DNA of 16,979 nucleotides, taken from positions 1 to 16,979 of IMG/VR virus record IMGVR_UViG_2713896771_000020. One strand, given 5' to 3'. The translations under genes and the position numbers were made by a program. Position 1 is the first letter of the stretch. The number at the start of each line of letters is the position of its first letter. Positions 1-14,660 of the stretch are shown piece after piece. The stretch is from a virus (lineage: Duplodnaviria; Heunggongvirae; Uroviricota; Caudoviricetes). The notes below the pieces were generated by a model. It did not search any database. It was not told the DNA's origin and was given only the letters and a program-made list of their open reading frames with translations.

Positions 1-309
1 CTAGTACTCAGGAAGATTTTCTAAATTATCCTTAGATGTACCATTGGCTCTAGTTGTAATGTAATCAATGTTGTTAACACGGTCTTTAACCACTTTTTGA
101 CCCTTCTTCCACTTACCGTCATCACCTATGAAAATGGTGTAAAACGTATAACCACTATCGATCTTATTCACTACCCACTGCCGTGTTTCTGATACCCCTC
201 CCCCAACAGTATCCCCCTTATCAACATGCACATACACATGGGTAATGTGAGTGTGCTTGTCGTTATATCGGACTTTAGAAATAAGGTAATCAGCCCATTT
301 ATCAATCAT
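1..309 (-). CDS. Hypothetical cargo protein, possibly DUF3892-like; ATG at 307-309 preferred, alternative TTG start at 361-363
   Basis: Complete ORF with stop at 1-3. GGTGG Shine-Dalgarno-like sequence just upstream of the ATG at 309. Motifs HTHITHV ... SGYTFYT ... NLENLPEY recalled as resembling DUF3892, tentative. About 35% GC by eye, well below the neighbouring terL. Confidence 0.45.
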   Translation of the reverse strand: MIDKWADYLISKVRYNDKHTHITHVYVHVDKGDTVGGGVSETRQWVVNKIDSGYTFYTIFIGDDGKWKKGQKVVKDRVNNIDYITTRANGTSKDNLENLPEY

Positions 310-458
310 ATTCCACCATAAGTTTGAACAGGAAAAGTCCTGCAATACTCTTATAAACAACAAAGCAGCGGCTTCCTACCCCACGATGGTAATATAGTGA
401 TCTAGAGCAATTTATATTTCCGATAACATCGACACAACTCCACATTTACACTCTATTC

Positions 459-2120
459 TCAAATTCCATTAAATAAAGCCAACCGTTCTTTGTGGCTGTC
501 GCTCATATCGAATGCAAATTCCTCATGCTCTGCCTGGAATGTGCCAAACGCCATCAGCGCCGCAACGCTCGGGTCTATCTTGTTGGATGATTTTTTCTTG
601 TTCGGCTTGATATTGGCGTTTGCGTCACTCTGCATCACAACATTACTCATTGACCAGGCCAGCACCGGATCACCACTATGCACAATCACCTTCCGGTTAA
701 CAAAAACCTCGAACGATTTCGCCGCCGGACTGAAACGAAGGTATGTTTGCGGGAACGGCTCCACCTCAAATCCTGCCCCCTGTAGCTGCGTCCTCAGGTG
801 TGTGGCGTTCCATGTATCGAAGCCCACCAGCCTGATATTGAAATTCTCTGCATCCGCCATGATGTCATCACGGATACGGTCATAATCAATGCAGTCACCC
901 GGTGTTGTGCGTATCCAGCCCGCCTTTACCCACTGGCGATAGATGGCGCGGTTTTTATTGGCGGGGTTCTGTAGCTGAAATTCCGGCAGATAGTGACGGG
1001 AAACCAGCATAATCTTTTTACCGACCGGAAAGGCATAGCACACGCTGGAAATATCGCTGGTTGATGATAAGTCCAGCCCCGCGTAGCACTCCTGCCCGTA
1101 TAAATCCGCCTCCGCGAACGTTCCGGCGCACTCCGCCCATGCACCGTTACCCATCCACGGCGTAGCCCCCTGACACCAGATATTGAATCGCTTGGTGAGC
1201 ATTTCCACCCACTGCGACGGAATACCCCGCGCTTTCTGGATGGTTGATGCCAGTTTTTCACGATCGACGGAAACATCGATATTGGGATTCGCCTTTATCC
1301 ACATCGCCGGATCGTCAACCTCGCTTTCATCATCCAGCTCGTAAATCAGCACGAACATGGATTCGTTCACCTCTTCACCATCCAGTATCTGGCAGCAATA
1401 GTCGTAGTGTTGTTTACAGGCTGAAACAACGTTGCTCCCCGATGTGGTGATGGCAAATAACAGCCCCTCCGGACGCGCCCCCATTCCCAGCTCAAGCGCG
1501 GAATAAACCCCGTTGTCAGGATGCAGGTGATATTCATCCACAATGGCAAGACTCGGGTTTGTACCTTCAATGGTTGCCGCTTTTGCTGCCAGTGGCTTTA
1601 ACAGGCTGTTGGTTTTCGGGTGTATCACCTTGTGTGCCTGAATATTTACCCGCTTTCGCAACGGTCGGGATAAAAGGCACATCTGACGCGCATCATCAAA
1701 CACGATCCGCGCCTGATCACGACTCACGGCGGCGGTGTAAATATCCTGCTGCCCGTTTTCCATAACCAGAAACCAGTTAGCCAGGATAGCGGCGACCGTG
1801 GATTTGGCATTTTTTCGCGGCACTTCAATGAATGCGCTGGTGTATTTGCGCCGTCCGGTGGCCTTAACCTTAAAGCCCAGGATGCACGCAAAGGCGAACT
1901 GCTGCCACGGCTCCAGCTCAATGGGGCTACCGCGCATTGCGCCTTTTACGTGCGGACACACCCTGGAAAAGGCAATAAACCGCTCCACGACCTCCGGATC
2001 GAACGTGTAAAGGGGGTTTTCAAGGTCAGAAAAATACCGTTTAACGGCCTGTTTCAGTCGTTTACAGGCCGTAATTTTGCCGTTTTTTACGCCTTCTGCG
2101 TACTCATGCCAGGCGGTCAA
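459..2120 (-). CDS. terL: Terminase large subunit
   Basis: 553-aa ORF with an ATPase P-loop region (EVPRKNAKST) and overall terminase-like length and layout. TTG start at 2118-2120 preceded by GAGGA, overlapping the terS stop by 17 nt. Confidence 0.85.
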   Translation of the reverse strand: MTAWHEYAEGVKNGKITACKRLKQAVKRYFSDLENPLYTFDPEVVERFIAFSRVCPHVKGAMRGSPIELEPWQQFAFACILGFKVKATGRRKYTSAFIEVPRKNAKSTVAAILANWFLVMENGQQDIYTAAVSRDQARIVFDDARQMCLLSRPLRKRVNIQAHKVIHPKTNSLLKPLAAKAATIEGTNPSLAIVDEYHLHPDNGVYSALELGMGARPEGLLFAITTSGSNVVSACKQHYDYCCQILDGEEVNESMFVLIYELDDESEVDDPAMWIKANPNIDVSVDREKLASTIQKARGIPSQWVEMLTKRFNIWCQGATPWMGNGAWAECAGTFAEADLYGQECYAGLDLSSTSDISSVCYAFPVGKKIMLVSRHYLPEFQLQNPANKNRAIYRQWVKAGWIRTTPGDCIDYDRIRDDIMADAENFNIRLVGFDTWNATHLRTQLQGAGFEVEPFPQTYLRFSPAAKSFEVFVNRKVIVHSGDPVLAWSMSNVVMQSDANANIKPNKKKSSNKIDPSVAALMAFGTFQAEHEEFAFDMSDSHKERLALFNGI

Positions 2121-2460
2121 GCTCGTCCTCTTCCTCTGTTTCCGGTGGATTTCTGCGGCGACTTACCGGGTCAAAACCCAGCAAAGAAGCCATTTTGATC
2201 ATTATTCTTTCAGCGTCAGCCTTTGCGCTCAGGGCGGGGTTTCTGCTCTCGCTGCCCTGACTGTTAACAATGCTGAACCCGCGCGTGGCAAGGTCTTCGA
2301 CGGCTTTGCGGTATATGGAGTAGTTAACGCAATACAGCTCCAGATTGCTCCAGTCGGCGGGGGTAAGGTCTTCCCGTCCGGAAAGCTGGCGCGATTTTTC
2401 CTTCCACTGCCTGACCGCGATTTCATCCAGGTAAGCGGGGGCTTTTGGTGGTCTTGCCAT
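2104..2460 (-). CDS. terS: Terminase small subunit (P27-like family)
   Basis: Start at ATG 2458-2460 (MARPPKAPAYLDE...). Size and motifs (LELYCVNYSIYRKA ... NPAL ... FGFDPVSRRR) typical of P27-type small terminases. Sits immediately upstream of and overlapping terL. Confidence 0.8.
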   Translation of the reverse strand: MARPPKAPAYLDEIAVRQWKEKSRQLSGREDLTPADWSNLELYCVNYSIYRKAVEDLATRGFSIVNSQGSESRNPALSAKADAERIMIKMASLLGFDPVSRRRNPPETEEEDELDRLA

Positions 2461-2582
2461 GTTCTTTTTTCGCCCAATTATTTTCAAAAAAATTCCCGTG
2501 CACAAAAATTTGAGGAGGCGTTCGGTGCCCGGCGGGGTCGGGTTTGTCCTGAAAACGCCCCCCACCCCGCCATACAGCCTCA

Positions 2583-2765
2583 TCAGCGATTGCGGAAACA
2601 TTCCATAACCTCGCGGTCACGGTCGGTTAATCGCTTCGCTGTGATGCGTTCTGCGCGTCCTGACGCTTTATCTTTATGCCCTGTTTCCTGTGTCTTCCAT
2701 GCGTCACGCTGCCTTATAAGTCCACGGATAAGGCGGTTTTGTTCCCGCTCATTCATCAGCGTCAT
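2583..2765 (-). CDS. Questionable small basic ORF (60 aa) in the HNH-terS spacer
   Basis: ATG at 2763-2765 and in-frame ORF, but no convincing Shine-Dalgarno and it overlaps the HNH 3' end. It may be non-coding and part of a cos or regulatory region. Confidence 0.2.
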   Translation of the reverse strand: MTLMNEREQNRLIRGLIRQRDAWKTQETGHKDKASGRAERITAKRLTDRDREVMECFRNR

Positions 2766-3189
2766 ACATCCAGTTATTGCGGTTAGCGGCCCGTTCTTCA
2801 TCTTCACGAAATCCACCTGCGGCACGCTTGCTTTTTGTTGCCGGATCAAGCCATTTCGTTTTCTGGTTATGACACGCCTGACACAATGGCTGATGGTTCC
2901 ATTCGGGCCAGAAGAGAACATCATCGCCGCCATCGATGGGGATAATGTGATCCACCACCACGGCGGGCGTATATATCCCCTTCTCAAGGCATCGCACGCA
3001 TAACGGGTTTTTACTCAGATACATGGCGCGGTATTTGTCCCACTGTCTGGAGTACCCACGCGCGCGGCGGTGTCCTCGTCTGGCATCCTCTGCACGCCAT
3101 GCCGCCCGCCTGTGCTCCTCACACTTACCGGACTTAACGCGCCTGTTACAGCCTGGTTCTGTACATCGTCTTAATGGTTGCCACGGCAT
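2749..3189 (-). CDS. HNH endonuclease (terminase-associated)
   Basis: Cys pairs and HNH core: CNRRVKSGKC ... CVRC ... VDHIIP ... WNHQPLCQACHNQKT. Located directly upstream of terS, as in HK97-like cos packaging modules. Confidence 0.9.
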   Translation of the reverse strand: MPWQPLRRCTEPGCNRRVKSGKCEEHRRAAWRAEDARRGHRRARGYSRQWDKYRAMYLSKNPLCVRCLEKGIYTPAVVVDHIIPIDGGDDVLFWPEWNHQPLCQACHNQKTKWLDPATKSKRAAGGFREDEERAANRNNWMYDADE

Positions 3190-3482
3190 CAGTACACCCC
3201 CACATCACGGTAAGCCGTCCAGAGTGCGCCTATCGTCATGGGTACGCGCGTTTTTGCGTTATCCGCGACAATCTGGCGATTTTCATACAGGTGAGCGATA
3301 AACATCATGCAGCCAATCTTTATGGCTGGCGTGAACTCCAGCCCGTCATCAAAGCGCCTGCCTATGTGTATCTGGCACGCCTCAAGCGATGCGGCAATGT
3401 ATCCGCTGATTAACTGGTCTTCATCGTCGCCATCGATGCGGCAATGGAGTTTCACTTCTTCCAGGGTGATAAGTTCTGTCAT
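3189..3482 (-). CDS. Head-tail connector protein (gp6-like)
   Basis: 97-aa protein MTELITLEEVKLHCRIDGDDEDQLI..., matching the characteristic N-terminus of gp6-type connectors. ATGA start/stop overlap with the upstream gene. Confidence 0.7.
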   Translation of the reverse strand: MTELITLEEVKLHCRIDGDDEDQLISGYIAASLEACQIHIGRRFDDGLEFTPAIKIGCMMFIAHLYENRQIVADNAKTRVPMTIGALWTAYRDVGVY

Positions 3483-3817
3483 TTTTCCGCGCCCTCACGA
3501 CAAAGAATTTCAAGGCGTGTCCTGGCGGCATCTGGCAGCGGTTGCCCGATGATATTCAGTACACGCCCCGCCAGCGGCCCCGTATTGACCTTTATCCGAC
3601 TGGTGGCGTTGATGTCCTTCCGGTAGCGTATCCATATCCTTACAGTTCCAGTCGCCAGCTCTGCACCTGATGAAATGGCCTCCTTGCTGCTGATCATGTT
3701 CACGCTTGCCCAGAGTGTGTGACCGTCCAGCCACGTTTCGAGTATTTCACCCGTCATGGCTCTGGTCTGTTTCAGGGTCTGAATCGTTACCCTGTCACGC
3801 AGTCGCCCTATGTTCAT
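3479..3817 (-). CDS. Head closure / head-tail adaptor protein
   Basis: MNIGRLRDRVTIQ ... TLWASV ... IRYRKDI ... pattern of head-closure proteins. ATG at 3815-3817 overlaps the portal stop (ATGA coupling). An upstream in-frame ATG at 3857-3859 is less likely. Confidence 0.65.
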   Translation of the reverse strand: MNIGRLRDRVTIQTLKQTRAMTGEILETWLDGHTLWASVNMISSKEAISSGAELATGTVRIWIRYRKDINATSRIKVNTGPLAGRVLNIIGQPLPDAARTRLEILCREGAEK

Positions 3818-5025
3818 TCCGGTTTTTCTCCCTCGCTGATTTTTACTTCCTGTTTCCATGCCTGGCTGAACTCATCACCACCATCACGCGGTGACAGTCC
3901 TTCACGTTCGCGGGCTTCGTTCGGACACATAACGCCGGATTTGATGCCGCGCTCATAGGTGGCAAAGCGTTCGCCAGGTGTGGCCCGTAACAGGTCCGCG
4001 CTGTCAAACTCCACCTGATACCGGATACCAGGTACAGGCGAGGCCACCAGCAGGGCGTTTTTTATCTGCTGCTCAAAGTTCGCCAGCCACGGGCGCATCG
4101 TCATGGTGAGAAATGCGCGGCTTGCCTCGCTGAAATTGCTGTAGGTGCTGTTGCTGTATTCCTGCAAAAAAATCGGCGAGACGTTGAACATTCTGGCGAT
4201 GTCTTCAATGGTGAAGCGACGGGAGGCCAGCCATTCAGCATCCTGATTACTCATGCCCAGCTGCTGATAGCTCATACCCCCTTCAAGGATGGGCGTTTTT
4301 CCGGCGTTTCTGGCCCCTTTGTAGCGTTCCAGTGCGGCTAATGCCTGTTTGCCCTTCACGCCGTCCAGCCATTCGCCTGACGTGATAACCCCTGCCGCCA
4401 TCATGCCATCACGCATCACGCTCGCGCCGTGGCGTTGTTGGGCCAGCCCAAGCCCCAGCGATTCGCGGCAGATGGTTACAGGTGAGCGCCCCATAAAACC
4501 GTCATCCGTGGAGTAACGAAGGTGGAGAACCTCCCACGGTAAATAGTTGCGGGTGTTTCCGGTGTAAGCGTCAGTGATGCAGTAGCGCCAGTTGTGTTCT
4601 CCTGTCTGCTCCATGTTCACCGACTGCGGCGGGTAAGGATGCAAAGCCGCCGGAAAACCATCACGCCCCCACTGAATCACCGCGTAAGCATTACCGTTTA
4701 ACAGGCAGTGGCGGATCATCATTCGCTTAAACTGGTAGGGAGTCTGCCACGCGTTCGGGCGCTCGTTGAGGATGTGATCGACCGGATGAGAATCAAGCCA
4801 CTCGCGGGCCTCCTTCCCCTTCTCATTGCGTACCAGGTACAGGTAACACGGCATGGTAGCCACCGCCTCAGAGATGACCGTCACGGCGTTCATGACGGCG
4901 GGCAGTGATTCCGCTGTCCCCGATGATACGTACTCACCCGCCCCCGTGTTCGATGTGCCAGCCAGCGCCATAAACTCATCAAGCGTCATGCTGCGCTGCT
5001 CTTTTTTTCTTCTGAAAGGCCACAT
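3814..5025 (-). CDS. Portal protein (HK97 family)
   Basis: 403-aa ORF with size and composition of HK97-type portals. GGGGG Shine-Dalgarno 6 nt upstream of ATG 5023-5025. Flanked by protease and adaptor genes. Confidence 0.85.
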   Translation of the reverse strand: MWPFRRKKEQRSMTLDEFMALAGTSNTGAGEYVSSGTAESLPAVMNAVTVISEAVATMPCYLYLVRNEKGKEAREWLDSHPVDHILNERPNAWQTPYQFKRMMIRHCLLNGNAYAVIQWGRDGFPAALHPYPPQSVNMEQTGEHNWRYCITDAYTGNTRNYLPWEVLHLRYSTDDGFMGRSPVTICRESLGLGLAQQRHGASVMRDGMMAAGVITSGEWLDGVKGKQALAALERYKGARNAGKTPILEGGMSYQQLGMSNQDAEWLASRRFTIEDIARMFNVSPIFLQEYSNSTYSNFSEASRAFLTMTMRPWLANFEQQIKNALLVASPVPGIRYQVEFDSADLLRATPGERFATYERGIKSGVMCPNEAREREGLSPRDGGDEFSQAWKQEVKISEGEKPE

Positions 5026-5026
5026 A

Positions 5027-5599
5027 TCACACCCCCGCTAAATCCGCCCACCAGCGGCGATTATCCGCACGCGGCATTTTTTCGGGGTGCTGCTCGTACA
5101 GGGAGCGGCGGGCCAGCTCCACGCCGGAATCAGGGTAAGCCGGTACGGATGTGACGGTAATTTCGTACAGTTCCGCAACCAGCACGGTGCGCACGCATGG
5201 ATCTGTTGTGGTATCCCATACATCCTTACGGGAACGAAAGCCAAAGCTCATGCCGGATATATCACCACGCTTAACCAGTTCGATAACGTCGCGCCCTGTA
5301 CTGGTATCCGGTGGGGTCAGTTCAAAGCGTAACCCTGTTTCATCCTCTTCCAGTTTCAGCGTGCCGGAACGGGTGCGCCCCAGTAACATACTGTGGTCAT
5401 GCTCATACAGGCCGCGAACGTCATTACCCGCCGCAAGCCATTCAGTAAACGCCCCCCGCTGGAATTTTTCGTAAAACTCACCCCATAACAGTTCTGAAAG
5501 CTTATCCCAGCGAACAACGTAGCCTGTAAGCGTGTTGCTGCCGCTGGTGGTGATTTCCGATGACCGGATTTCCATACTCTTCATAATTTTTTCACCCAT
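5027..5599 (-). CDS. Prohead maturation protease (HK97 family)
   Basis: 190-aa ORF; motif LYEHDHSMLLGRTRSGTL typical of HK97-type prohead proteases. Start among ATGs at 5597, 5582 or 5573 is uncertain. Confidence 0.8.
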   Translation of the reverse strand: MGEKIMKSMEIRSSEITTSGSNTLTGYVVRWDKLSELLWGEFYEKFQRGAFTEWLAAGNDVRGLYEHDHSMLLGRTRSGTLKLEEDETGLRFELTPPDTSTGRDVIELVKRGDISGMSFGFRSRKDVWDTTTDPCVRTVLVAELYEITVTSVPAYPDSGVELARRSLYEQHPEKMPRADNRRWWADLAGV

Positions 5600-5608
5600 A
5601 AAACACTA

Positions 5609-5628
5609 AAGGGGCTTTTAAGCCCCTT
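5609..5628 (-). terminator. Hairpin immediately after the major capsid gene (partial terminator or attenuator)
   Basis: 8-bp stem AAGGGGCT/AGCCCCTT with a 4-nt loop, followed on the minus strand by GUGUUUUAUGG. Lies between the capsid stop (5639) and the protease start. Confidence 0.5.
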
Positions 5629-5638
5629 CTGTATGCTG

Positions 5639-6796
5639 TTAATCGTCGTCCTGTGGCAGTTCCAGAATCTTGATCGCGTTCGAATCCACCACGCCACCGC
5701 CTAAATATTTCTGCGTGAAAATTTTGATGAAGCCCGGCTCTGTGAGGTTGTCCGGTCTGGTGCGAACACCTGTTTCGTGATCAACAATGTAGTAACCGCG
5801 TTTGAAGTCACCCAGGGCAATAACGTTATCAGGCATAAACTCCAGATATTCGACCGGAAGGCCCAGCAACGTATCAGGATCACCCGCCTGTAAACGGTCG
5901 CGCCAGATATAATCACCGTTCGCGTTCTTCACCTTCTGGAGTTTTGCCGCCGTCGTGGAGTTAACCACCCAGACCGCGTTTTTGCGGTATTTTTTACGTA
6001 ATGCAAATTTCAGGTCGATCAGCGGGTCCGCAGATGTCCACGCCAGAGATTCGGAAGGTTTAATTACCTGTAACGTACCAAAATCACGCTCTTTGTCGTT
6101 CTTCTCTGCACGGGGTACGGATAAAAAGCCTTTTGCTTTTTTGTCACCATCGCCCACAACCAGATCGCTTTCTTCGGTTTCCGTGAAGGTGTCGCCAATC
6201 TCACCCGTCAGCCATGAAAGGATGTCCACATCGGAAAAATCCACGATTTCCTGTGTGGTGCGCGGGTACGCATAGACCGGATACAGCTTAATGCTCACCT
6301 CGTTAATCTGCGGGGTGCTGGTCTGTTCGCGTGCCTTACCCTCTTCACCGTGGTTAACGGTCGCACCGCCAGCGGAAACAAGCTGCTTAAACTCGTTGCT
6401 GCTGATTTTCTTCACGGTACAGATGCGGCGCATGGTGGATTCATCCGCCAGCATTCGCATGATTTCGGTGTTCAGTTCAGGGATAACGGTATAACCACCA
6501 TCAGCGGGAACGCCTGTACTTAATGCGCGGGTTTCACCTGTCAGAATGTAGTTGCGGAGTTCTGCGGGGTCAGTGGTCTGACTGCTTTTACCTGGCTTGC
6601 TGCGCTCTTCGTCTGCAATGGCTTCAAGGCGGGAAATGTCTTTATCGAGGGATTCAGCTTTAGCGCGTAATTCGTCAAATGTTGCGCCCTCAGCATCGTT
6701 AAGACTGCGGTTTTCTTTTTCCGCGTTCTCCAGCATGTCGCGCATCTGATTTTTAATGGCGGTTTTCTGCTGGCGTAATTCGATTATTCTCGGCAT
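5639..6796 (-). CDS. Major capsid protein, HK97 fold, with N-terminal scaffold-like (delta) domain
   Basis: 385-aa ORF. N-terminal ~100 aa is charged and coiled-coil-like (ELRQQKTAIKNQMRDMLENAEKENRSL...), followed by a capsid-like body. Adjacent prohead protease. Confidence 0.88.
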   Translation of the reverse strand: MPRIIELRQQKTAIKNQMRDMLENAEKENRSLNDAEGATFDELRAKAESLDKDISRLEAIADEERSKPGKSSQTTDPAELRNYILTGETRALSTGVPADGGYTVIPELNTEIMRMLADESTMRRICTVKKISSNEFKQLVSAGGATVNHGEEGKAREQTSTPQINEVSIKLYPVYAYPRTTQEIVDFSDVDILSWLTGEIGDTFTETEESDLVVGDGDKKAKGFLSVPRAEKNDKERDFGTLQVIKPSESLAWTSADPLIDLKFALRKKYRKNAVWVVNSTTAAKLQKVKNANGDYIWRDRLQAGDPDTLLGLPVEYLEFMPDNVIALGDFKRGYYIVDHETGVRTRPDNLTEPGFIKIFTQKYLGGGVVDSNAIKILELPQDDD

Positions 6797-7050
6797 AAAA
6801 AAAGTCCTGGGGTTAAGTAAGGAACTCCAGGACGCGGCAAAAACTCAACCGTTTTTCATAAGGAAATCAGCAATCGCACCGATCGTTTTCCCGCCTGGTA
6901 ATGAATATTGGCGAGAACATTAACAGGCGGAAAAGTGGCCCCAGCGTCCTGGCACCACGGGCGAGAATAATCATGATTCAGTTCGGGTAAAATATGCCGA
7001 TCCTGTCAGTGAACAACGTGGAACAACCGCGAACAAATAATTTACAAAAA
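6797..7050 (-). promoter_or_regulatory. Leader and promoter region of the capsid/packaging operon
   Basis: 254-bp non-coding gap. Three 10-bp-phased TTGTTC repeats (7011-7036) lie upstream of a candidate -10 TATTTT (~6989-6994). Hairpin 6804-6833 followed by T7 abuts the capsid ATG. Confidence 0.5.
7011..7036 (-). repeat. Three direct repeats GAACAA (TTGTTC on the minus strand) at exact 10-bp spacing
   Basis: Plus strand reads GAACAAcgtgGAACAAccgcGAACAA at 7011-7016, 7021-7026 and 7031-7036. Confidence 0.9.
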
Positions 7051-7055
7051 ATGAC

Positions 7056-7083
7056 AAAAAGCCGGATTGCTCCGGCTGTATGC
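7056..7083 (-). terminator. Rho-independent terminator
   Basis: Stem GCCGGA/TCCGGC (7061-7066 and 7071-7076) with loop TTGC, followed on the minus strand by TTTTTGTCATTTTTT. Near-identical copy at 7408-7434. Confidence 0.75.
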
Positions 7084-7087
7084 GTGC

Positions 7088-7312
7088 TCAGTCCCTGATC
7101 CCTTTCAGAAATTCTATCAATGCATCTATCTGTTCAGGATTTACCGCCAGCATTTCACCGGACAGAGCACATCTCACAAAACCATGCTGATCCTTTTCAA
7201 TCAGTGCGCCCGTCTCCAGGAATGCGCGGTAATCATTGATGCTCATCGTCTCCATGTTGTCAGCATGGTATTTATCACGCTGTTTTAATATCTCATCAAA
7301 TTTCATCGGCAT
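7088..7312 (-). CDS. Hypothetical 74-aa protein in a moron-like cassette
   Basis: ATG at 7310-7312 with AGAGGA Shine-Dalgarno 8 nt upstream (MPMKFDEILKQRDKYH...). Bracketed by two near-identical intrinsic terminators. Confidence 0.55.
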   Translation of the reverse strand: MPMKFDEILKQRDKYHADNMETMSINDYRAFLETGALIEKDQHGFVRCALSGEMLAVNPEQIDALIEFLKGIRD

Positions 7313-7407
7313 TGTTTTTTCCTCTGTTGTGTCTGTTTGTTTCAGATAGTAACTATGCCTGACCGTGACGAAAACCCGGTAATGCGCCATACCGTTTCAA
7401 CTGGTGC

Positions 7408-7434
7408 AAAAAAAGCCGGATTTCTCCGGCTGTG
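7408..7434 (-). terminator. Rho-independent terminator (second copy of the same element)
   Basis: Stem GCCGGA/TCCGGC (7415-7420 and 7425-7430) with loop TTTC, followed on the minus strand by T7. Immediately after the stop of the 7438-7710 gene. Confidence 0.8.
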
Positions 7435-7437
7435 TGA

Positions 7438-7710
7438 TTAGCTGTCCTGGTAATTTCGCCATATTTCATCACCAGCACCATCCATACCCATTTCGGCATA
7501 AGTGCGATCGACCGCCTTTTTCAGGTCTCCGTAATTATCCGGCGGCTCCGGTGGCCTCTGTGCCTTCCTGGAACATTCCAGCCGTCGCATCGTAACCTGA
7601 TGCCGTTCCTTGTCTGTCTCCACCAGCAGCATGACTTCACCCCATCGCGCCGACGCCCTCCGGTAAAAGCCTTTTGCCTCGAGTTCCTCCGCTATGCGGT
7701 CATGTACCAT
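7438..7710 (-). CDS. Hypothetical 90-aa protein
   Basis: ATG at 7708-7710 with GAGGGGG Shine-Dalgarno, just downstream of the ssb stop. The longer ORF-track start overlaps ssb out of frame and is rejected. Confidence 0.5.
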   Translation of the reverse strand: MVHDRIAEELEAKGFYRRASARWGEVMLLVETDKERHQVTMRRLECSRKAQRPPEPPDNYGDLKKAVDRTYAEMGMDGAGDEIWRNYQDS

Positions 7711-7720
7711 CGTCACCCCC

Positions 7721-8131
7721 TCAGAACGGAATATCATCACCGTAGGGGTCATCGTCTCCCGCTGGTGGCTGATTACCCTGTGTGCCTGTGGTTTTGCGTC
7801 TGTTCCCGCCAGGACGTGCCGCACGGGCACTGATTACGCTGTCTGCAATAACCTGATACCCCTGCCGTGTTTCCCCGTTCTGTCCGGTCCACTGGCTTAC
7901 CTGCATCGTGCCGGATACGCTGGCAACATCGCCTTTTTGATGTTTAGCCAGGAAATCGGCCTGTTTGCCAAATGCGATAACCGATAACCATAACGTCGCC
8001 TGTCCGTCATGTGCCTGGCTGCATGGCAACGATACCGCCATACGCGCCAGAGTCATCGGTGTGCCCTTGCTGCTCTGTTTTACCAGCGGGTCGTCCACCA
8101 GGCGCCCGTAAGCTGCAATTTGTGCTGTCAT
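7721..8131 (-). CDS. ssb: Single-stranded DNA-binding protein with acidic C-terminal tip
   Basis: 136-aa ORF with SSB-like core (TLWLSVIAFGKQADFLAKHQKGDVASVSGTMQVSQW), Gly-rich linker and C-terminal DDDPYGDDIPF, the conserved SSB tail. GAGGTGG Shine-Dalgarno. Confidence 0.8.
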   Translation of the reverse strand: MTAQIAAYGRLVDDPLVKQSSKGTPMTLARMAVSLPCSQAHDGQATLWLSVIAFGKQADFLAKHQKGDVASVSGTMQVSQWTGQNGETRQGYQVIADSVISARAARPGGNRRKTTGTQGNQPPAGDDDPYGDDIPF

Positions 8132-8140
8132 ATTGCCACC

Positions 8141-8446
8141 TCAGTGAAGCGATCCGGCGTTGTTCTTTTTCATCTCTTCCATCATTTTTTCAGTGAGCAT
8201 TACGCACTGAAAACCCATGTTTTTGATGTCTACGGGTTTCATGCCTTTGTCAGTGGATATCACAGGCAGAATATCCTGATACACATCGCGGTCAGGGTAA
8301 CTAAGCACACAAAGCGCCCATGATGCCACGGGTGAGGATCCTTCGTCTGTTTCAACCCACCAGCCTGGTGTAGCTGCGCTTATTTGCAGAATCGTGATCA
8401 GTCCGTTGTGCTTGTAAAGTTTTTCACCAAATTTTGGTTCGCTCAT
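8141..8446 (-). CDS. Hypothetical 101-aa protein
   Basis: ATG 8444-8446 with GGAGAGGTGG Shine-Dalgarno. ATGA overlap with the upstream gene. No recognisable motif. Confidence 0.5.
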   Translation of the reverse strand: MSEPKFGEKLYKHNGLITILQISAATPGWWVETDEGSSPVASWALCVLSYPDRDVYQDILPVISTDKGMKPVDIKNMGFQCVMLTEKMMEEMKKNNAGSLH

Positions 8447-8694
8447 GATTCCACCTCTCCGGTTTTAACGTTGATGGTTGTTACCTGTTCCGCTTCGGCA
8501 ATCTCCCGTTCTGTCAGCGTGGCAAAGTTTGCCGCCGCCGTGGTCATGAATGCGCTTATCAGGTCGGGATGTTCCTTCGCGTATCCTTCCCGCGTGTGGC
8601 GGTCTATCGTTCTGATTGCCACCTTTAAGGTGTGCTCAGTCATGTCTAACGCTTTATATTTTGGCTCTGTTCTGTCTCTGCGTTTTTGGGTCAT
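8443..8694 (-). CDS. Hypothetical 83-aa protein (start uncertain: 8694, 8724 or 8643)
   Basis: In-frame ORF translationally coupled to the downstream gene. Its upstream region overlaps the iteron array. Confidence 0.4.
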   Translation of the reverse strand: MTQKRRDRTEPKYKALDMTEHTLKVAIRTIDRHTREGYAKEHPDLISAFMTTAAANFATLTEREIAEAEQVTTINVKTGEVES

Positions 8695-8703
8695 TTCTCG
8701 CAA

Positions 8704-8897
8704 CCTCTCACTTTTTCGCCTCACTTTTTCAAGCGTCTCACTTCGTCGCAGCTGGGATTTTCGGTTTTTCTATGTGTGTGTTTCATAAGTATTTTTTTAC
8801 CCCTCACTTTTGAGGATGTATACAGGTCGAAAAGTGAGGGAGAGCAGGCTAATTTTGGCCCTCTTTCTATCCACCTCGCTTTTGCTCCTCACTTTTA
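8704..8897. repeat. Iteron array, putative replication origin of the island
   Basis: CTCACTTTT-type repeats at 8707, 8720, 8737 (degenerate), 8803, 8874 (degenerate) and 8888, plus one inverted copy AAAAGTGAG at 8830-8838. Adjacent AT-rich tract 8783-8800. Lies immediately 3' of the replicase gene. Confidence 0.65.
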
Positions 8898-10295
8898 TAG
8901 CGGCGCTACATCATCCCCATCGATACGAATAACCCCATCTTTTTCCAGCTTGTACAGCCAGCGCCGGAAGTTTTTCATTTCATACCCCAGCTTTTTCATG
9001 TCATCACGTAACAGCGGGATCGTGCACTTGTCGCCGTTCTGTGTGCGTGAACGGATGCACCCCCATAAAGCGGTATGGTTTTCCGTCTTGTTCCCGGCCT
9101 CCTCGATGCGCTCCAGTTCAACAGGAGGGCGCGGATCATCCACCACCACCAGCGACGTGATTAATTCACCGTCAGCGTCGGTAAAAAGCTCCACCACGCG
9201 TAAGTCATATGCGGCTTCTTTGAGTTCCTCCGCGTCCTTCATTTTGGTGCATGAGATAACCAGCGCTTCGCTTCCTGCGTCCTCCCTGCGTATCCGGTAT
9301 TCAGCATCCAGCGAAGCACGAAATGCACTGGAACCGCGCGCGCCTTTCGTCTCATCCTTGCCGGAATGGTGAACCACCAGCACCGTGGCCCCTGTGCGTC
9401 GTTTCAGTTCGTCACAACCACGGATAAACGCCCCCATATCACGGGAATCATTTTCATCATTCCCACCAAAGCAACGCGCCAGCGTATCCAGAATAATCAT
9501 GCGAACAGGTTTACCCGTTTCCCGCTCCACCTGACGGGCAGCGATAACCATTTCATCAACATCAAGCGGGGCAGCCGGAAAGATGGGGCGGTTTACCAGA
9601 TACAGATTTTTCACCTGCTCATCGTGCACAACCTCCCAGGCTTTTACACGACGCGGAACACCTATACCGCCTTCACCAACCACATAGAGAACCGCACCAT
9701 GCGCAACCCTGCGGCCTCCCCACTGGCGACCAGTGGCAACATGGCACGCCCACGATCCGGCAAGGAATGATTTATAGGACCCGCTAGCCCCGTATATGCT
9801 GCATAGCGATACCGCCGGAATAATCCCCTTAACCACGTAATCCAGTTGCGTGTCGTATCCGGTAGATCCAACGCTCATCGGTAGCGTGGTTTTTCGCTGG
9901 TGGTTTTTTTCTTCCGCCGGCTCTTTCCCACGCACCCGTTCCAGGTATTCGCGCCAGTTCTCCCGCATATGGCTGTGCATCCCTTCGGGGTAATAATTCG
10001 CATCAGTTACACCCGCCGCCGCCAGCTTGTGCGCAATGGCATTAATATTTGATGGCCTGATGTGGCCTGCCTTGTACAGCCGGACACAATAGCGCCCCTC
10101 GTCGATGATTCTCAGGTCTGCCAGTTCATCCAGTTGATCATCAGCCAGCACAACGGGAGGCACATTATCGCCAGCCAGTCGCCCGTCCTGTTCCTGCCAC
10201 TGTTTCGCATGTGCCCAGGCATCACTACCCGCAAAAATAATGACTTCGGTCATCTTGTCGTAAGGCTGTTTTTTTAAGTTCGGTGCGCTTTTCAT
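8895..10295 (-). CDS. Primase/replicase-type replication initiator with RecA-like (RepA/AAA_25-type) ATPase domain
   Basis: 466-aa ORF. P-loop-like YGASGSYKS, Walker B MIILDTL, and VVHHSGKD motif typical of RepA-like helicase loaders. ATGA coupling to the upstream gene. Confidence 0.75.
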   Translation of the reverse strand: MKSAPNLKKQPYDKMTEVIIFAGSDAWAHAKQWQEQDGRLAGDNVPPVVLADDQLDELADLRIIDEGRYCVRLYKAGHIRPSNINAIAHKLAAAGVTDANYYPEGMHSHMRENWREYLERVRGKEPAEEKNHQRKTTLPMSVGSTGYDTQLDYVVKGIIPAVSLCSIYGASGSYKSFLAGSWACHVATGRQWGGRRVAHGAVLYVVGEGGIGVPRRVKAWEVVHDEQVKNLYLVNRPIFPAAPLDVDEMVIAARQVERETGKPVRMIILDTLARCFGGNDENDSRDMGAFIRGCDELKRRTGATVLVVHHSGKDETKGARGSSAFRASLDAEYRIRREDAGSEALVISCTKMKDAEELKEAAYDLRVVELFTDADGELITSLVVVDDPRPPVELERIEEAGNKTENHTALWGCIRSRTQNGDKCTIPLLRDDMKKLGYEMKNFRRWLYKLEKDGVIRIDGDDVAPL

Positions 10296-10591
10296 TTCTT
10301 GCCCCTGAATACGTTAAGCATCTTTTTTATTTCCTGAATATTGGCGCGTGCTTTCTCCCTGCTGGTTGGTTTACTGCGGGGCGCTGCCTGTACCAGAGAA
10401 AAATCACGCCGGAACTGATAAACAGGCATCACGCAGTCATATTCGTAGCCTTCACGGCGGTAGGTAATGCGTCGCTCTTCTACACCTTTAATCGTTACGG
10501 TGCCGCCGTACTGGTCGCGGTAAATATCGCCGCGCGTAAATTTAGGGTGAGTGTTGCCACTGGCAGTTAAGCCAGAATATTTAAGTTTCAT
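10292..10591 (-). CDS. Hypothetical 99-aa protein
   Basis: ATG 10589-10591; intact ORF in the same operon directly upstream of the replicase. Confidence 0.5.
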   Translation of the reverse strand: MKLKYSGLTASGNTHPKFTRGDIYRDQYGGTVTIKGVEERRITYRREGYEYDCVMPVYQFRRDFSLVQAAPRSKPTSREKARANIQEIKKMLNVFRGKK

Positions 10592-10596
10592 TATTT

Positions 10597-10830
10597 TTAT
10601 TCTCCGGTGTGCTGTTCTTTATATCTGTCGTGCAATATATCTATTTCTTGCAGTTCCATTATTACAGGATCAAGAAGCGTTATTAATGCCGTGGCAATTC
10701 TTGATTTTTGTTTGTCGCGTTCATTGTCGCCAAGTGTTTCAAGCCATATGCGCAATATTTCCAGCATGTTTTCACTGTGAGAAAGTGCAAGAAATGCGCG
10801 GTCTATTGTTTGGTGGTAAATATCACGCAT
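10597..10830 (-). CDS. Hypothetical 77-aa protein, AT-rich gene
   Basis: ATG 10828-10830 with GAGGA Shine-Dalgarno. Local GC visibly lower than flanking genes. Confidence 0.5.
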   Translation of the reverse strand: MRDIYHQTIDRAFLALSHSENMLEILRIWLETLGDNERDKQKSRIATALITLLDPVIMELQEIDILHDRYKEQHTGE

Positions 10831-11272
10831 GGCTTACATCCTCAGGAAATTTTCTTCTATAACGCGCCTCTGCCACATATTCCGCATAATCGGCGGCGAT
10901 ATTCAGTACATCAAGCCCCGTTGATTTATATTCTCTCGTGGAAAGTAAGAAAAAAGCCGCTCTAATAAGTTCTGGCATTGACGAAAGCGCATCAGCCGCA
11001 TCATCAGGAACGCCGGAAAATTCCTGTTTCAGGGAATTAAAACGATCATCACGCATAACCCCCCCCCCATTTTCACAATCAGCAACAAGAATATTTTTAG
11101 CGTCATTCAGCGACCGCGTTGCGGTGTATCGGATACATTCCAGGGCGAATAGTGTGTATTCTTCCCTTTCTTCCTTTTGTGCAAGCTCTGCTGTGCATTC
11201 AATATCAATAAGCGCGTGCATCAGCGTAGTGAGTGCGGCGGCGGCTGCGTCCGGTGTGGTTTTATTGCACAT
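10823..11272 (-). CDS. Hypothetical 149-aa protein containing a G10 homopolymer tract
   Basis: ATG 11270-11272 with GGAGGGG Shine-Dalgarno. The coding strand carries GGGGGGGGGG (plus-strand C10 at 11059-11068) encoding ENGGGV. Confidence 0.5.
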   Translation of the reverse strand: MCNKTTPDAAAAALTTLMHALIDIECTAELAQKEEREEYTLFALECIRYTATRSLNDAKNILVADCENGGGVMRDDRFNSLKQEFSGVPDDAADALSSMPELIRAAFFLLSTREYKSTGLDVLNIAADYAEYVAEARYRRKFPEDVSHA

Positions 11273-11492
11273 GTACCCCTCCGCATTTTTTTTCGTTAGA
11301 AATAAGCGTTCTTCTTTCCTGTTCATCGATCAGGAATACGCAGACCTCACCGCTAAGGCGTTTAAGTAAGCCGATGATTGCCCCTGATTCGCTGTCGGTC
11401 ATCATGCCTGGGTAATCCTCTGCCAGTGCGCAAATAACTTCGATTTGGTGGGCGCGTTCTACTGCCTGTTGTAGTGTGATTTCCTGGCTCAT
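11262..11492 (-). CDS. Hypothetical 76-aa acidic protein
   Basis: ATG 11490-11492 overlapping the stop of the upstream gene (ATGA). No recognisable motif. Confidence 0.5.
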   Translation of the reverse strand: MSQEITLQQAVERAHQIEVICALAEDYPGMMTDSESGAIIGLLKRLSGEVCVFLIDEQERRTLISNEKKCGGVHVQ

Positions 11493-11689
11493 AAGCCTAC
11501 CCCCTGACGAATACGGGCAGCGAATACCATCACGCAGCCAGCCGGGGATTGCAGGCGTGCTTCCTGTTCGCTGGTGGCCTCAATGGTAATCACGCGCGGT
11601 TGTGCAGTGCTCAGGGCGATAAAACGCCAAATGTATTTATTCAGGTTGTGCGAGTCCCGCCCTTGCGGGTGTGTGGTATGATTTCTCAT
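11489..11689 (-). CDS. Hypothetical 66-aa protein, first gene of the leftward early operon
   Basis: ATG 11687-11689 with GAGGT Shine-Dalgarno (MRNHTTHPQGRDSHNLNKYIWRF...). The ORF-track 381-aa extension upstream is non-coding promoter sequence. Confidence 0.5.
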   Translation of the reverse strand: MRNHTTHPQGRDSHNLNKYIWRFIALSTAQPRVITIEATSEQEARLQSPAGCVMVFAARIRQGVGL

Positions 11690-11885
11690 AGCTACCTCGA
11701 TACTCTCGTTATCGTTGGTGGTTAGAAGCCCCGTTACTGCTCCTACAGTGCGGGGTTTCGTCGTTTCTGCACCTTGCATTAACAAGGTGTAAGTAACTTT
11801 ATTTATAGGTGGCTTACATGTCAATGCTTTTATGTAAGACTTTTTATGTGTATATTGTCTTACACTTTCATTGAGAGGATTACAG
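11690..11885. promoter_or_regulatory. Divergent promoter/operator switch region
   Basis: Minus-strand promoter: perfect -35 TTGACA (11819-11824), 17-nt spacer, -10 TAAAGT (11796-11801). Plus-strand candidate -10 TATATT (11851-11856). Inverted repeats CTTACAT/ATGTAAG (11814-11820 and 11833-11839), TGTAAGAC/GTCTTACA (11834-11841 and 11858-11865), CACCTTG-N6-CAAGGTG (11770-11789). Confidence 0.6.
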
Positions 11886-12191
11886 ATGGCTACAGGTTCA
11901 AAAAACGCAAAATCACAATCACTGACAGCTCGGATCCCGCATGATGTTATTGAAGGCATGGAATCCGTAAAACTGGACGGTGAAAGCAACGCCGGATTCA
12001 TAGTAACCGCCATGCGCGGTGAAATCGCCCGCCGCCAGGCAGAAGGAAGCGGAGAAAACCTCCTGATTTCTTCGCTCAATGCACTGGCGCAGGTGGAAAA
12101 ACTCGGAATCAAAGCCGCCGAGGAGATCGGGCAGCTCGTCACTGTCGCACGTGAAGAACTCCAGCGCCGCAAGACTAAAGAACCAGAGTAA
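11886..12191 (+). CDS. Small ribbon-helix-helix-like DNA-binding protein, candidate island repressor
   Basis: ATG 11886 with GAGAGGA Shine-Dalgarno. N-terminal beta-strand/helix pattern SLTARIPHDVIEGMESVKLDGESNAGFIVTAMRGEIARRQ resembles Arc/CopG-type folds. Divergent from the early operon. Confidence 0.5.
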   Translation: MATGSKNAKSQSLTARIPHDVIEGMESVKLDGESNAGFIVTAMRGEIARRQAEGSGENLLISSLNALAQVEKLGIKAAEEIGQLVTVAREELQRRKTKEPE

Positions 12192-12248
12192 TCACCATCA
12201 GCGCCGTGGTGTAAGGTATTACGGCGCATTGCTATGCAGGACAACACA

Positions 12249-12422
12249 ATGACCGATAAAGAATTGACCAAAACATTATCACCGGCACGGAAAAGACGGC
12301 GCAGAAAGATAGAGCATGAATCAGAAAGATTCGCGCCATGTGCTTTTGCCCTTGAGCAATTCCTTAAAGAGTACAGGGAAAAGCGCTCATTGCAGGTATG
12401 GCAACGAACTGAACCAGACTGA
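12249..12422 (+). CDS. Hypothetical 57-aa basic protein
   Basis: ATG 12249 with AGGA Shine-Dalgarno 7 nt upstream (MTDKELTKTLSPARKRRRRK...). Second gene of the short plus-strand operon. Confidence 0.4.
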   Translation: MTDKELTKTLSPARKRRRRKIEHESERFAPCAFALEQFLKEYREKRSLQVWQRTEPD

Positions 12423-12517
12423 TTGCATTGCCCACCAGCCTGATAGCGGCTATCATCCCCGTGCTTATGTTTGGGATCACATACACAAACGGCGCAGCGG
12501 GTTATCTGTTCAGAAAG

Positions 12518-12545
12518 GCGGCTCCATTTCGGGGCCGCTTTTTTT
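12518..12545 (+). terminator. Rho-independent terminator of the plus-strand regulator operon
   Basis: 8-bp stem GCGGCTCC/GGGGCCGC with one G-U pair and loop ATTTC, followed by T7. A second AU-rich hairpin CTGAAAAAC/GTTTTTCAG lies at 12550-12579. Confidence 0.7.
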
Positions 12546-12691
12546 ATACCTGAAAAACCCCAATTTTGTTGTTTTTCAGTTTCACCAGGGCGAACGAATC
12601 CCCGCCCACGTTCTGGCGTATATTCAATCTTCATGGTTATGGCTCTGTGTTCAGATGATTGATGTGTGGCGGCTGCGTGCCGCCAGCGTGA

Positions 12692-12880
12692 TTAATGAAC
12701 TGCCTTGCAGCTATCCTTCCAGGCCAGAACCTCGGATAAAGACCAGCCAACGGAACGACCGCCAAGTTTACGACGTGATGGGAATTGTCCGGCCTTTTCC
12801 AGGCGGTAGCGGCATGAGCGGCTAAGGCCTGTTAGCTTTTCGCATTCTTTTTCACGTATAAACCGATCAGTGCTTAACAC
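12692..12880 (-). CDS. alpA: AlpA-family (excisionase-like) transcriptional regulator
   Basis: 62-aa protein; core LTGLSRSCRYRLEKAGQFPSRRKLGGRSVGWSLSEVLAWKDS matches the AlpA/Xis-like winged-helix signature. GTG start with GGGGG Shine-Dalgarno. Immediately downstream of int in the same orientation. Confidence 0.85.
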   Translation of the reverse strand: MLSTDRFIREKECEKLTGLSRSCRYRLEKAGQFPSRRKLGGRSVGWSLSEVLAWKDSCKAVH

Positions 12881-13163
12881 TATTGCCCCCTTTCGTTTCT
12901 TAAAGAGTTATTTCGTGTTCTATTGCGTTGGGATGTGTCTGATTGTGTCAGGATGATTCAGAGTTGGCAAATGTTGAGGCCGTATGGTTTACAGAAAGAG
13001 GAATAATCAGGATAAAATCATTTAAATTCATGTTAATACAAAGGCATAAAATATTGTTTCATGCCTTTTTTCTCGCTATTTAAAGAGTGATTCGCTAGTG
13101 TATAAAAAACCAGTAACACATTAAAAATCAGCTACTTATAAATCTGTACACTTTTTCGCCTCT

Positions 13164-13208
13164 TGTTCGTAGTTGTTCCGCATTGTTGCTCATTGTTGCA
13201 CGTTGTAT
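13164..13208 (+). repeat. Four to five direct repeats TTGTT(C/G) at 10-bp spacing
   Basis: TTGTTC at 13164 and 13174, TTGTTG at 13184 and 13194, degenerate TTGTAT at 13203. Same motif and phasing as the arrays at 7011-7036 and 14539-14574. Confidence 0.85.
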
Positions 13209-13221
13209 CTGTTCGCATATC

Positions 13222-13237
13222 CAGTATGCGCATACTG
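13222..13237. promoter_or_regulatory. Perfect 16-bp palindrome CAGTATGCGCATACTG
   Basis: Exact dyad symmetry directly adjacent to the repeat array, in the int-alpA intergenic region. No flanking U-run, so a protein site is more likely than a terminator. Confidence 0.5.
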
Positions 13238-13254
13238 AAAAAATACGAAAAAAA

Positions 13255-14484: not shown

Positions 14485-14507
14485 GTTTTACCCCCTCTTT
14501 ACGAAAA

Positions 14508-14531
14508 AGTGACTACACCAGTGACTACACC
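14508..14531. repeat. Perfect tandem 12-bp direct repeat AGTGACTACACC x2 in the int promoter region
   Basis: Copies at 14508-14519 and 14520-14531, about 25 bp upstream of the int start codon. Confidence 0.9.
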
Positions 14532-14538
14532 GATCGTT

Positions 14539-14574
14539 GCACAAAGGGCTACAACGTGAAACAAGCTGGAACAA
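14539..14574 (-). repeat. Four 10-bp-phased TTGT repeats upstream of int
   Basis: Plus strand has ACAA at 14541, 14551, 14561 and 14571. Minus strand reads TTGTTC, TTGTTT, TTGTAG, TTGTGC at exact 10-bp intervals. Confidence 0.8.
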
Positions 14575-14660
14575 GGAAAATCACAAATCTGTTGATAATC
14601 AAAAACATAATGCACAGCCTGAAACATTATGAAACAGCAAAAAACACTAAATGATAAAAT

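Follow-up and report, generated by a model that had tools for sequence, protein, structure and literature searches.

Several regulatory leader RNAs of well-described systems offer a comparison for the element that we report here, a hairpin with a run of seven U residues that directly adjoins the start codon of a major capsid gene. The gene lies in a stretch of DNA of 16,979 nucleotides (IMG/VR record IMGVR_UViG_2713896771_000020, positions 1 to 16,979; hereafter the window), the minus strand of which carries a complete capsid-forming phage-inducible chromosomal island (cf-PICI) of Escherichia coli. This hairpin, H3, is the last part of a structured leader RNA that probably keeps the capsid and packaging genes off until a signal refolds the leader; two further hairpins, H1 and H2, precede it, and a helix that we call ALT could form between H1 and the 5' arm of H3 (coordinates are given in Table 1). 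The layout is that of trp and pyrBI leaders and of riboswitch platforms, with 1:2 as H1, 3:4 as the terminator with its U-tract, and 2:3 as the alternative pairing, and as in trp/pyrBI-type attenuators the two folds are close in energy. Unlike those attenuators, the window has no conserved leader peptide and no known ligand-binding fold in Rfam, and a stalled ribosome cannot be the sensor here because the transcript begins with segment 1 at its extreme 5' end.

Gram-negative leaders that sequester the Shine-Dalgarno sequence, such as translational riboswitches, RNA thermometers, and rpoS-type leaders, resemble every cf-PICI lineage in that the Shine-Dalgarno sequence or the AUG is buried, and an upstream segment can likewise release it by capturing the anti-Shine-Dalgarno arm. 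The hairpin of the window's own lineage (lineage W) differs from these in its U7-8 tract, so that the stem can also act on transcription, and in that the releasing segment lies in cis within the 5'-terminal hairpin. Another parallel is the late control region of phage lambda (PR'/tR'/Q, with its 6S RNA), where a promoter is followed by a leader of ~160-190 nt and a terminator that blocks the structural operon, so that read-through licenses the production of virions. In contrast to lambda, the cf-PICI leader is structured and covarying, has an antiterminator pairing of its own, and places its terminator against the start codon, where it hides the ribosome-binding site. The CI RNA of P4 and the c4 RNA of P1 and P7 also have a 5'-proximal stem-loop complementary to a downstream site near the ribosome-binding site, and these leaders likewise control premature termination or translation. 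Their pairing is inhibitory, and the processed RNA is a trans-acting immunity factor, whereas the pairing in the window would relieve repression; the Rfam C4 family gave no match to the leader.

We did not find the signals of phage antitermination systems. The initial 36 nt of the transcript, as predicted, lack a -10-like pause element of the Q (qut) type, and there is no Q-like protein among the open reading frames (ORFs) of the island, and no lambda N/nut boxA (CGCTCTTA-like) on the transcribed strand, the sole matches being on the plus strand at 4997 and 6087. The AlpA antiterminator of Pseudomonas aeruginosa reads DNA with residues R128-H142, and its N-terminal segment forms a ring at the RNA exit channel (PMC9371919). 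The AlpA of the island has 62 aa and is too short for such a ring, and function can therefore not be transferred by name. Antitermination of the Q, N, and P. aeruginosa AlpA types was rejected because the defining signals or domains are absent. The mechanism that we propose joins attenuation to sequestration of the Shine-Dalgarno sequence and is in this respect of a known kind. The leader family itself was not found in Rfam or in the literature searched.

The hairpin at the capsid start codon

On the minus strand, the order is GTCCTGG (6833-6827), a 16-nt spacer (AGTTCCTTACTTAACC), CCAGGAC (6810-6804), TTTTTTT (6803-6797), and ATG (6796-6794), exactly as an earlier sequence-only reading of this DNA had described it. 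That reading had also placed the only Shine-Dalgarno candidate in the 3' arm, and this is borne out: AGGA (6808-6805), 8 nt from the ATG, is the sole purine-rich candidate within the last 25 nt before the start codon. Folding with ViennaRNA adds three pairs within the spacer (GUU with AAC, past the 1x1 mismatch), which reduces the effective loop to 8 nt, and gives H3 an energy of -12.7 to -14.1 kcal/mol. For lineage W, the Shine-Dalgarno region is predicted to be paired with a probability of 0.84. The noted likeness to an intrinsic terminator that ends at the start codon holds for all of its sequence features, as five of the seven stem pairs are G-C and the U7 tract begins at the first base past the stem. 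H3 is absent from the list of a consensus terminator scan, probably because of the loop limit of 8 in that scan. It is the only site on either strand of the window with a perfect stem of at least 7 bp and a T-run of at least 6, the chance expectation for such sites being 0.04-0.1 as estimated from the 33 T>=6 runs in the window. The local fold has a z-score of only -2.05, and the argument that hairpin and U-run are more than chance, which we consider sound, therefore rests mainly on conservation.

Relatives of lineage W were found through capsid homology and through DNA patterns outside the hairpin, which yielded 80 loci with 21 unique leaders, some of the loci being one contig fetched twice. 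The standard stem in this set has an energy of -14.1 kcal/mol, and most substitutions keep or lengthen it. A CC-to-TT double change converts a G-C pair into G-U and at the same time closes the internal mismatch, so that the stem grows to 11 bp (-16.6 kcal/mol), and a TG variant reaches -15.2 kcal/mol. In a diverged sub-lineage (L061/L349), whose capsid is 69% identical, the loop is unrelated and sits on a 10-bp stem (-15.4 kcal/mol) that is followed by U8. The two arms and the U-run stand out as conserved islands in a 3' leader that is otherwise hardly alignable between the two sub-lineages. In all, the position of the hairpin and the U7-8 run are kept in 26 of 26 unique W leaders, and the G-U changes fit selection on RNA pairing rather than on a DNA palindrome.

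The U-run is specific to this lineage. Among 197 unique leaders, all 26 of lineage W have a T-run of at least 6 no more than 14 nt from the start codon, and none of the 171 others has one. The Shine-Dalgarno region is predicted to be paired with a probability of 0.93 in the main cf-PICI lineage and 0.76 in lineage X, and in the Gilliamella and AT-rich lineages it is instead the AUG that is predicted to be paired (0.99 and 0.79, respectively). These models suggest that the general feature of cf-PICI leaders is sequestration of the Shine-Dalgarno sequence or AUG and not termination, and a terminator function would be confined to one lineage as judged from the sequences. As a separate observation, L317 and L319 (also L322 and L324) have an H2-like hairpin followed by T7 in the leader, ~40-90 nt upstream of the capsid start, so that a terminator-like output has arisen there at another position and in another lineage.

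A structured leader with a competing pairing

H3 is one module, the 3' one, of a structured leader RNA of ~160 nt that hundreds of cf-PICIs have in common and that has its own predicted promoter. We aligned 115 unique capsid-upstream regions of relatives and numbered them from the first base of H1. Positions 1, 2, and 6 of the -10 hexamer (T, A, and T, at -11, -10, and -6) are each kept in 115 of 115, and the TTT of the -35 element (-33 to -31) is kept in 112-115 of them; the family form is a -10 of TAtnTT and a -35 of TTT(A/T)C(T/A) with a 16-nt spacer. Because it agrees with the consensus at only 8 of 12 positions, the promoter of the window is weak and is missing from the list of the consensus scan. 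The predicted transcription start, ~6958, coincides with the first base of H1 and places H3 ~125-160 nt downstream. Since the U-run adjoins the ATG, no other promoter-like site separates the capsid gene from the hairpin. H3 thus lies within the capsid operon's own transcript and would act only as an attenuator or gate of that operon.

The first two hairpins are supported by covariation. In the leader alignment, RNAalifold finds compensatory changes in 13 of the 18 pairs of H1 and H2, and G-U pairs occur. The inner stem of H1 is CCAG/CUGG in lineage W and CUCA/UGAG in the main lineage, which amounts to three compensatory pairs; the complete main-lineage form reads GUGGCA-CUCA-GACG-UGAG-CCGCCAC, and a single 17-nt H1 motif retrieved at least 120 viral contigs. 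H2 is common to the other lineages in position and structure and not in sequence, and within the main lineage its stem differs wholly between sub-lineages while always remaining complementary. The order in the main lineage is H1, H2, a pyrimidine-rich linker, and H3, the last of these consisting of UGGUUUCaCGU, a loop of ~16 nt, and ACGgAAACCA, and ending 5-6 nt before the AUG. This H3 sequence (GGUUUCACGUC ... ACGGAAACC) is not present in the window, which has only CGUC and the loop part CUUAAC in common with it, its 3' arm and U-run being specific to lineage W. Part of the W hairpin (CGUCCUG...CUUAACC) is homologous to the 5' arm and loop of the E. coli 'B' variant of H3, and lineage W appears to have remodeled the sequestering hairpin into a terminator-shaped one. 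Apart from promoter and start codon, the columns invariant in all lineages include the GACG of the H1 loop and its reverse complement, the CGUC of the H3 5' arm. As in the family that we propose, the window has a 5'-terminal H1 with a GACG loop, a long variable H2, the promoter upstream, and the capsid gene downstream.

A covariance model built from the main lineage only recovered lineage X at 69-73 bits. Only with filters off did the same model match the window, at a weak 13.3 bits (E = 4e-4 over 601 nt), and this match starts exactly at 6958 and aligns H1 and H2, not the 3' part. From the sequences, we take the window to have the 5' two-thirds of the cf-PICI leader joined to a different 3' module. 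Rfam 15 gave no match on the window at the gathering score and, with E <= 5-10, no relevant match for the window leader, L005, or L061, the C4 family and riboswitches included. The window leader also had no match in 50,697 phage records. The idea that the element is common with true phages was rejected, as the main-lineage leader matched three records, the best of which is a satellite-sized 'phage' record of 16.5 kb. The enterohemorrhagic E. coli small RNA Esr41 was likewise rejected as a match, being located in another island, SpLE1. In the leader-bearing locus L005, positions 1826-1919 form a near-perfect hairpin of ~95 nt with spurious matches to microRNA precursors in Rfam on both strands; this is possibly a replication origin or another DNA-level palindrome.

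Candidate leader peptides were also rejected. A 35-codon ORF (6975-6868, minus strand) begins with an ATG at 6975-6973, upstream of the predicted start; this ATG is absent from L055, L007, and L120, and the ORF is not kept in the sister sub-lineage L061. The same applies to a 3-codon mini-ORF (ATG AAA AAC GGT TGA, 6859-6845, minus strand), which L061 does not keep, and a 10-codon ORF of the main lineage was set aside because its ATG is missing in several lineages.

The leader contains a partner for the 5' arm of H3. The segment CCAGGACGC (6952-6944, in H1) can pair with GCGUCCUGG (6835-6827) in an ALT helix of 9 bp and -17.1 kcal/mol, the partner strand, given as GCGTCCTGG, being complementary to it at 9 of 9 positions. 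The exact 9-mer CCAGGACGC occurs only twice in the window, once per strand. ALT overlaps the 5' arm of the terminator and extends two pairs past it, so that 9 bp compete with 7 bp. The counterparts are AGACGUGAG with UUCACGUCU in the main lineage and GACGGGAG with UUCCCGUC in lineage X. In alignments of the three sequence states, the ALT helix is 80-82% paired, and sliding the partner by 1-3 columns lowers this to 23-52%. At one ALT position, 20 sequences have U-A, 5 have G-C, and 3 have C-G, and none lacks the pair. Three more pairs differ in both bases when W is compared with the main lineage, and the core GACG:CGUC is invariant. The islands of Gilliamella follow the same logic with unrelated sequence, as CAGAUAUG is found in the 5' hairpin and again at the start codon, where it faces CAUAUCU. 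When partial transcripts of the window are folded, those of 132-148 nt, in which the 5' arm of H3 has been made and the 3' arm has not, have a lowest-energy fold with all 9 ALT pairs and an open H1, and those of at least 150 nt fold back to H1 and the terminator hairpin. In the full-length leader, ALT costs 9.5 kcal/mol in the window and 4.3 in the main lineage.

These computed features (sequence, conservation, the covariation of H1, H2, and ALT, and the energetics) are consistent with the following sequence of events, in which we infer the start of transcription, the act of termination, and the direction of the switch. Transcription would start at ~6958 from the weak promoter, which is probably activator-dependent in view of the three TTGTTC repeats upstream. 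The first 24 nt would fold as H1, followed by the long H2. When GCGUCCUGG emerges ~125 nt into the transcript, it would have two possible partners: CCAGGACGC in H1, giving a 9-bp helix that is both antiterminator and anti-sequestrator, and, ~20 nt later, CCAGGAC-U7, giving an intrinsic terminator that buries AGGA. By default H1 would form first and the terminator and sequestrator would follow, so that transcription of the operon is attenuated and whatever mRNA extends past the hairpin is translated poorly. If a cue kept H1 from forming or opened it, CCAGGACGC would become available to bind the 5' arm, with read-through and an exposed ribosome-binding site as the result. We found no sensor that would choose between the folds: the upstream ORF is not kept, and Rfam gives no aptamer match.

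Weighing the proposed switch

A number of points weigh against this mechanism. Termination, the transcription start, and the switch are predictions, and a U-rich spacer after the Shine-Dalgarno sequence can simply favor translation. Two natural W variants have weakened stems (-10.1 and -7.5 kcal/mol). The 3' half of the window leader is not alignable with the main lineage, and the covariance model covers only H1 and H2. The covariation of ALT reduces to three sequence states, or roughly two evolutionary events. Within the main lineage, both ALT partners are invariant even when the leaders are retrieved through H3, as every true member retrieved in this way has the standard H1 and shows no covariation; such invariance would follow equally from a conserved, sequence-specific binding partner and from a constraint imposed by two pairings. 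The register of ALT also differs, involving the 5' strand and loop of H1 in the window and the loop and 3' strand of H1 in the main lineage. Finally, H1 is stable and forms first, which sets up a kinetic barrier, and ALT may never form without a factor.

Other explanations can be offered for the same features. The hairpin could act on translation only, masking the Shine-Dalgarno sequence, with the U-run as an A/U-rich spacer or enhancer and RNA polymerase reading through. Gram-negative leader switches usually act on translation, and it fits this explanation that sequestration of the Shine-Dalgarno sequence or AUG is common to all lineages while the U-run is found in one, and that the mismatch and the 8-nt loop make H3 less compact than the two canonical terminators upstream. 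A spacer need not be a homopolymer, though, and both sub-lineages retain an unbroken U7-8 right at a G+C-rich stem although the other parts of the 3' leader have diverged; with stem energy and U-tract also in the range of functional terminators, we consider a purely translational role unlikely. Another possibility, the antitermination option of the sequence-only reading, is that the hairpin always terminates unless a helper or island factor (Q-, N-, put-, or AlpA-like) modifies RNA polymerase for processive antitermination, so that it passes this hairpin and the two terminators upstream. Three terminators do stand in series on the same strand upstream of the capsid gene (7431-7408, 7077-7055, and 6833-6797), and the invariance of H1 across host genera would fit recognition by a conserved host machine. 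The put RNA of HK022, with two adjacent hairpins right after its start, has a similar layout. What makes this decidedly improbable is the dedicated promoter between the second and third terminators, together with the lack of TANNNT before +37, of a boxA on the transcribed strand, and of an Rfam match, and an island AlpA that has only the PF05930 helix-turn-helix (HTH).

The leader could also be a small RNA in its own right, a transcript of ~160 nt (6958-~6797) that acts in trans on helper or host RNAs, with capsid expression as leakage. The 6S RNA of lambda and StxS of Stx phages are precedents for short promoter-proximal transcripts that end at a terminator, and the presence of a ProQ/FinO-family gene upstream of the leader in a related island would suit such a role. 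We nonetheless regard it as very improbable, since the other lineages have H1 and H2 without a terminator at this place and so would make no discrete small RNA, and since the islands, when searched for another copy of the H1 sequence that could be a target in trans, showed none that recurs consistently. That the element has no regulatory function at all, being an inverted repeat that lies beside a T-run by chance or an element of the DNA itself (a protein operator or recombination site, for example), could draw on the modest z-score and on a window-wide chance that is not negligible. It is scarcely credible in light of the substitutions that preserve the stem through G-U or fill the mismatch, as G-U fits RNA and not a DNA palindrome, and of L061, in which the loop has been fully replaced while the stem is kept; moreover, every W leader has the U-run.

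The best explanation in our assessment is a leader that conditionally attenuates transcription, also sequesters the site of translation initiation, and contains its own antiterminator, and we regard it as about evenly poised between right and wrong in this full form. The sequence-only reading had proposed that capsid expression is gated by antitermination or by translational unmasking. The idea of a gate holds up in that the hairpin lies in the capsid unit, is conserved, and has an ALT partner in the leader, but the antitermination part finds no Q or N signals to support it, and the AlpA is too short. None of our results shows a helper-phage signal at work there, a possibility that the same reading had raised, and that reading had not recognized the hairpin as a module of a larger structured leader. 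The gate is very probably real and encoded in cis, and its antiterminator partner can be named.

Upstream DNA, genetic setting and implications

The leader and capsid gene form a module with a well-defined upstream edge. The canonical terminator at 7077-7055, detected by a terminator scan, is the left boundary of this module in recombinant E. coli islands, and matches to E. coli genomes break at query positions 369-395, which correspond to 7082-7056 of the window. The same scan placed this terminator at 7077-7060 and a nearly identical one at 7431-7414, and it found one further terminator after the capsid gene. Between the boundary and the promoter lie the conserved motif TTTTGTAAATTATT, presumably a protein-binding site, and the array of TTGTTC repeats. 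The motif is kept even in AT-rich lineages, with a weaker form (TTTGTAATTAATT) in one Gilliamella island. The repeats had already been pointed out by the sequence-only reading and are indeed present (7036-7031, 7026-7021, and 7016-7011). Counted from the inferred transcription start, they are phased on one face of the helix, an arrangement that fits activator sites, which they probably are. The region of motif and repeats (7049-7011 in the window, 4018-4060 in L001, and the upstream regions of L005, L257, and L314) varies by lineage in its repeats, which are TTGTTC in the window and CGTAC/TTTAC/ATTAC in L005. The combination of TTTTGTAAATTATT with lineage-specific repeats looks like an activator site that swaps specificity. 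The TTGTTC type does not depend on PerC, which is missing from L003.

The table lists a further, tentative element, GATTATTCTCG, which would be carried only by transcripts that read through from upstream. Its complementarity to the capsid codons could silence such read-through transcripts. This is similar to fold-back inhibition in IS10, a protection against outside transcripts in which a -10-region sequence is complementary to the coding start and only read-through transcripts are silenced; the match here differs in being only 11 nt with weak statistics, and it is additional to H3, not its explanation. A generic test for fold-back pairing of the 5' region with the start region was not significant (median z = -1.0). 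In AT-rich lineages (L290, L298, and L288), we observed an inverted repeat of 9-14 bp (TTTTTCATGNNGTT ... AACNNCATGAAAAA) that runs from the promoter spacer to the start codon and shows some compensatory changes.

Table 1. Positions of the leader elements and selected genes, listed from the upstream to the downstream end of the minus strand.
Feature	Position	Strand	Remarks
Integrase	13255-14484	minus	
AlpA	12692-12880	minus	62 aa; PF05930 HTH over residues 5-54, no other domain
RepA-type helicase	8895-10295	minus	SSB gene next in order
PerC	7438-7830	minus	
74-aa phrog_1957 protein	7088-7312	minus	Directly upstream of capsid leader region
Canonical intrinsic terminator	7055-7077	minus	AGCCGGAGCAATCCGGCT + T-run; terminator scan; ends upstream early unit
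Conserved DNA motif TTTTGTAAATTATT	7036-7049	minus	Upstream of capsid leader in nearly all cf-PICI lineages examined
TTGTTC x3 direct repeats	7011-7036	minus	10-bp spacing; ~-53 to -78 from predicted start, centers ~-55, -65, -75
Predicted weak sigma-70 promoter of capsid/packaging operon	6964-6991	minus	-35 TTTACC 6991-6986, 16-nt spacer, -10 TATTCT 6969-6964
GATTATTCTCG, overlapping -10 hexamer (tentative)	6962-6972	minus	11-nt perfect complement of capsid codons 2-5, CGAGAAUAAUC, 6792-6782
H1, 5'-terminal hairpin	6935-6958	minus	GUGGUG-CCAG-GACG-CUGG-GGCCAC, -15.6 kcal/mol
H2, long hairpin	6886-6934	minus	Core CCGCCUG 6930-6924 with CAGGCGG 6897-6891
GCGUCCUGG, H3 5' arm (6833-6827) plus two bases	6827-6835	minus	9/9 complementary to H1 segment 6952-6944
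H3, terminator-like and sequestering hairpin	6804-6833	minus	7-bp stem, 1x1 mismatch, 3 bp, 8-nt loop
U7 tract	6797-6803	minus	Adjoins both stem and start codon
HK97-type major capsid gene	5639-6796	minus	Pfam PF05065, E = 1.5e-61; PGAP annotation
TerL, last of packaging operon	459-2120	minus	

The gene order of the island is that of the cf-PICI EcCIEDL933 (Alqurainy et al., bioRxiv 10.1101/2022.09.08.507074), and an identical sequence is the island in tqsA of E. coli H19. Islands of this kind build their own capsids and take only tails from the helper phage. The capsid gene is the first of the packaging operon and is followed by genes for the protease, the portal, head completion and connector proteins, HNH, TerS, and TerL. 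Its start at 6796 is called in the same way by PGAP in the E. coli H19 locus, and the N-terminus can be aligned with those of capsid homologues. The capsid stop codon is followed, ahead of the protease gene, by a hairpin (GAAGGGGCTTAAAAGCCCCTT; 5629-5608, minus strand) that has a weak T-rich tail and may be a partial terminator or an mRNA stabilizer that sets the ratio of capsid to protease.

Upstream of the leader, two near-identical canonical terminators (7431-7408 and 7077-7055, minus strand; AGCCGGAG[A/C]AATCCGGCT + T-run) flank the 74-aa phrog_1957 gene and thereby insulate it, as a separate unit, from PerC on one side and the capsid promoter on the other. As a candidate regulator, this protein had no match in PDB or Pfam, and its predicted structure has a mean predicted local distance difference test (pLDDT) score of 57. 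In a related E. coli cf-PICI (L002), a gene for an RNA chaperone of the ProQ/FinO family (2190-2732) takes PerC's place, two genes upstream of the leader. The cf-PICI and E. coli PICI literature describes alpA as needed for induction, and in the part of it that we searched we found no description of how the packaging operon is controlled.

A satellite must keep its head and packaging operon silent in the lysogen and switch it on at the right time, and for this operon the control region is now concrete: a weak promoter, phased repeats, and a leader whose last hairpin would act in two ways and meet a competitor pairing. It is possible, though we lean toward doubting it, that the capsid leaders of cf-PICIs are an undescribed, satellite-specific family of riboregulators, with at least four lineages and hundreds of elements. 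In such a family, the hairpins at the 5' end and at the ribosome-binding site would compete for one strand, a helper or host cue would time capsid expression, and the output would be interchangeable, with sequestration of the Shine-Dalgarno sequence or AUG in most lineages and a true intrinsic terminator in the E. coli EDL933/H19-type islands. If true, this would provide a handle on the licensing signal and a new RNA family for annotation, and it would be a natural case of a regulatory leader that has swapped a translational for a transcriptional output.

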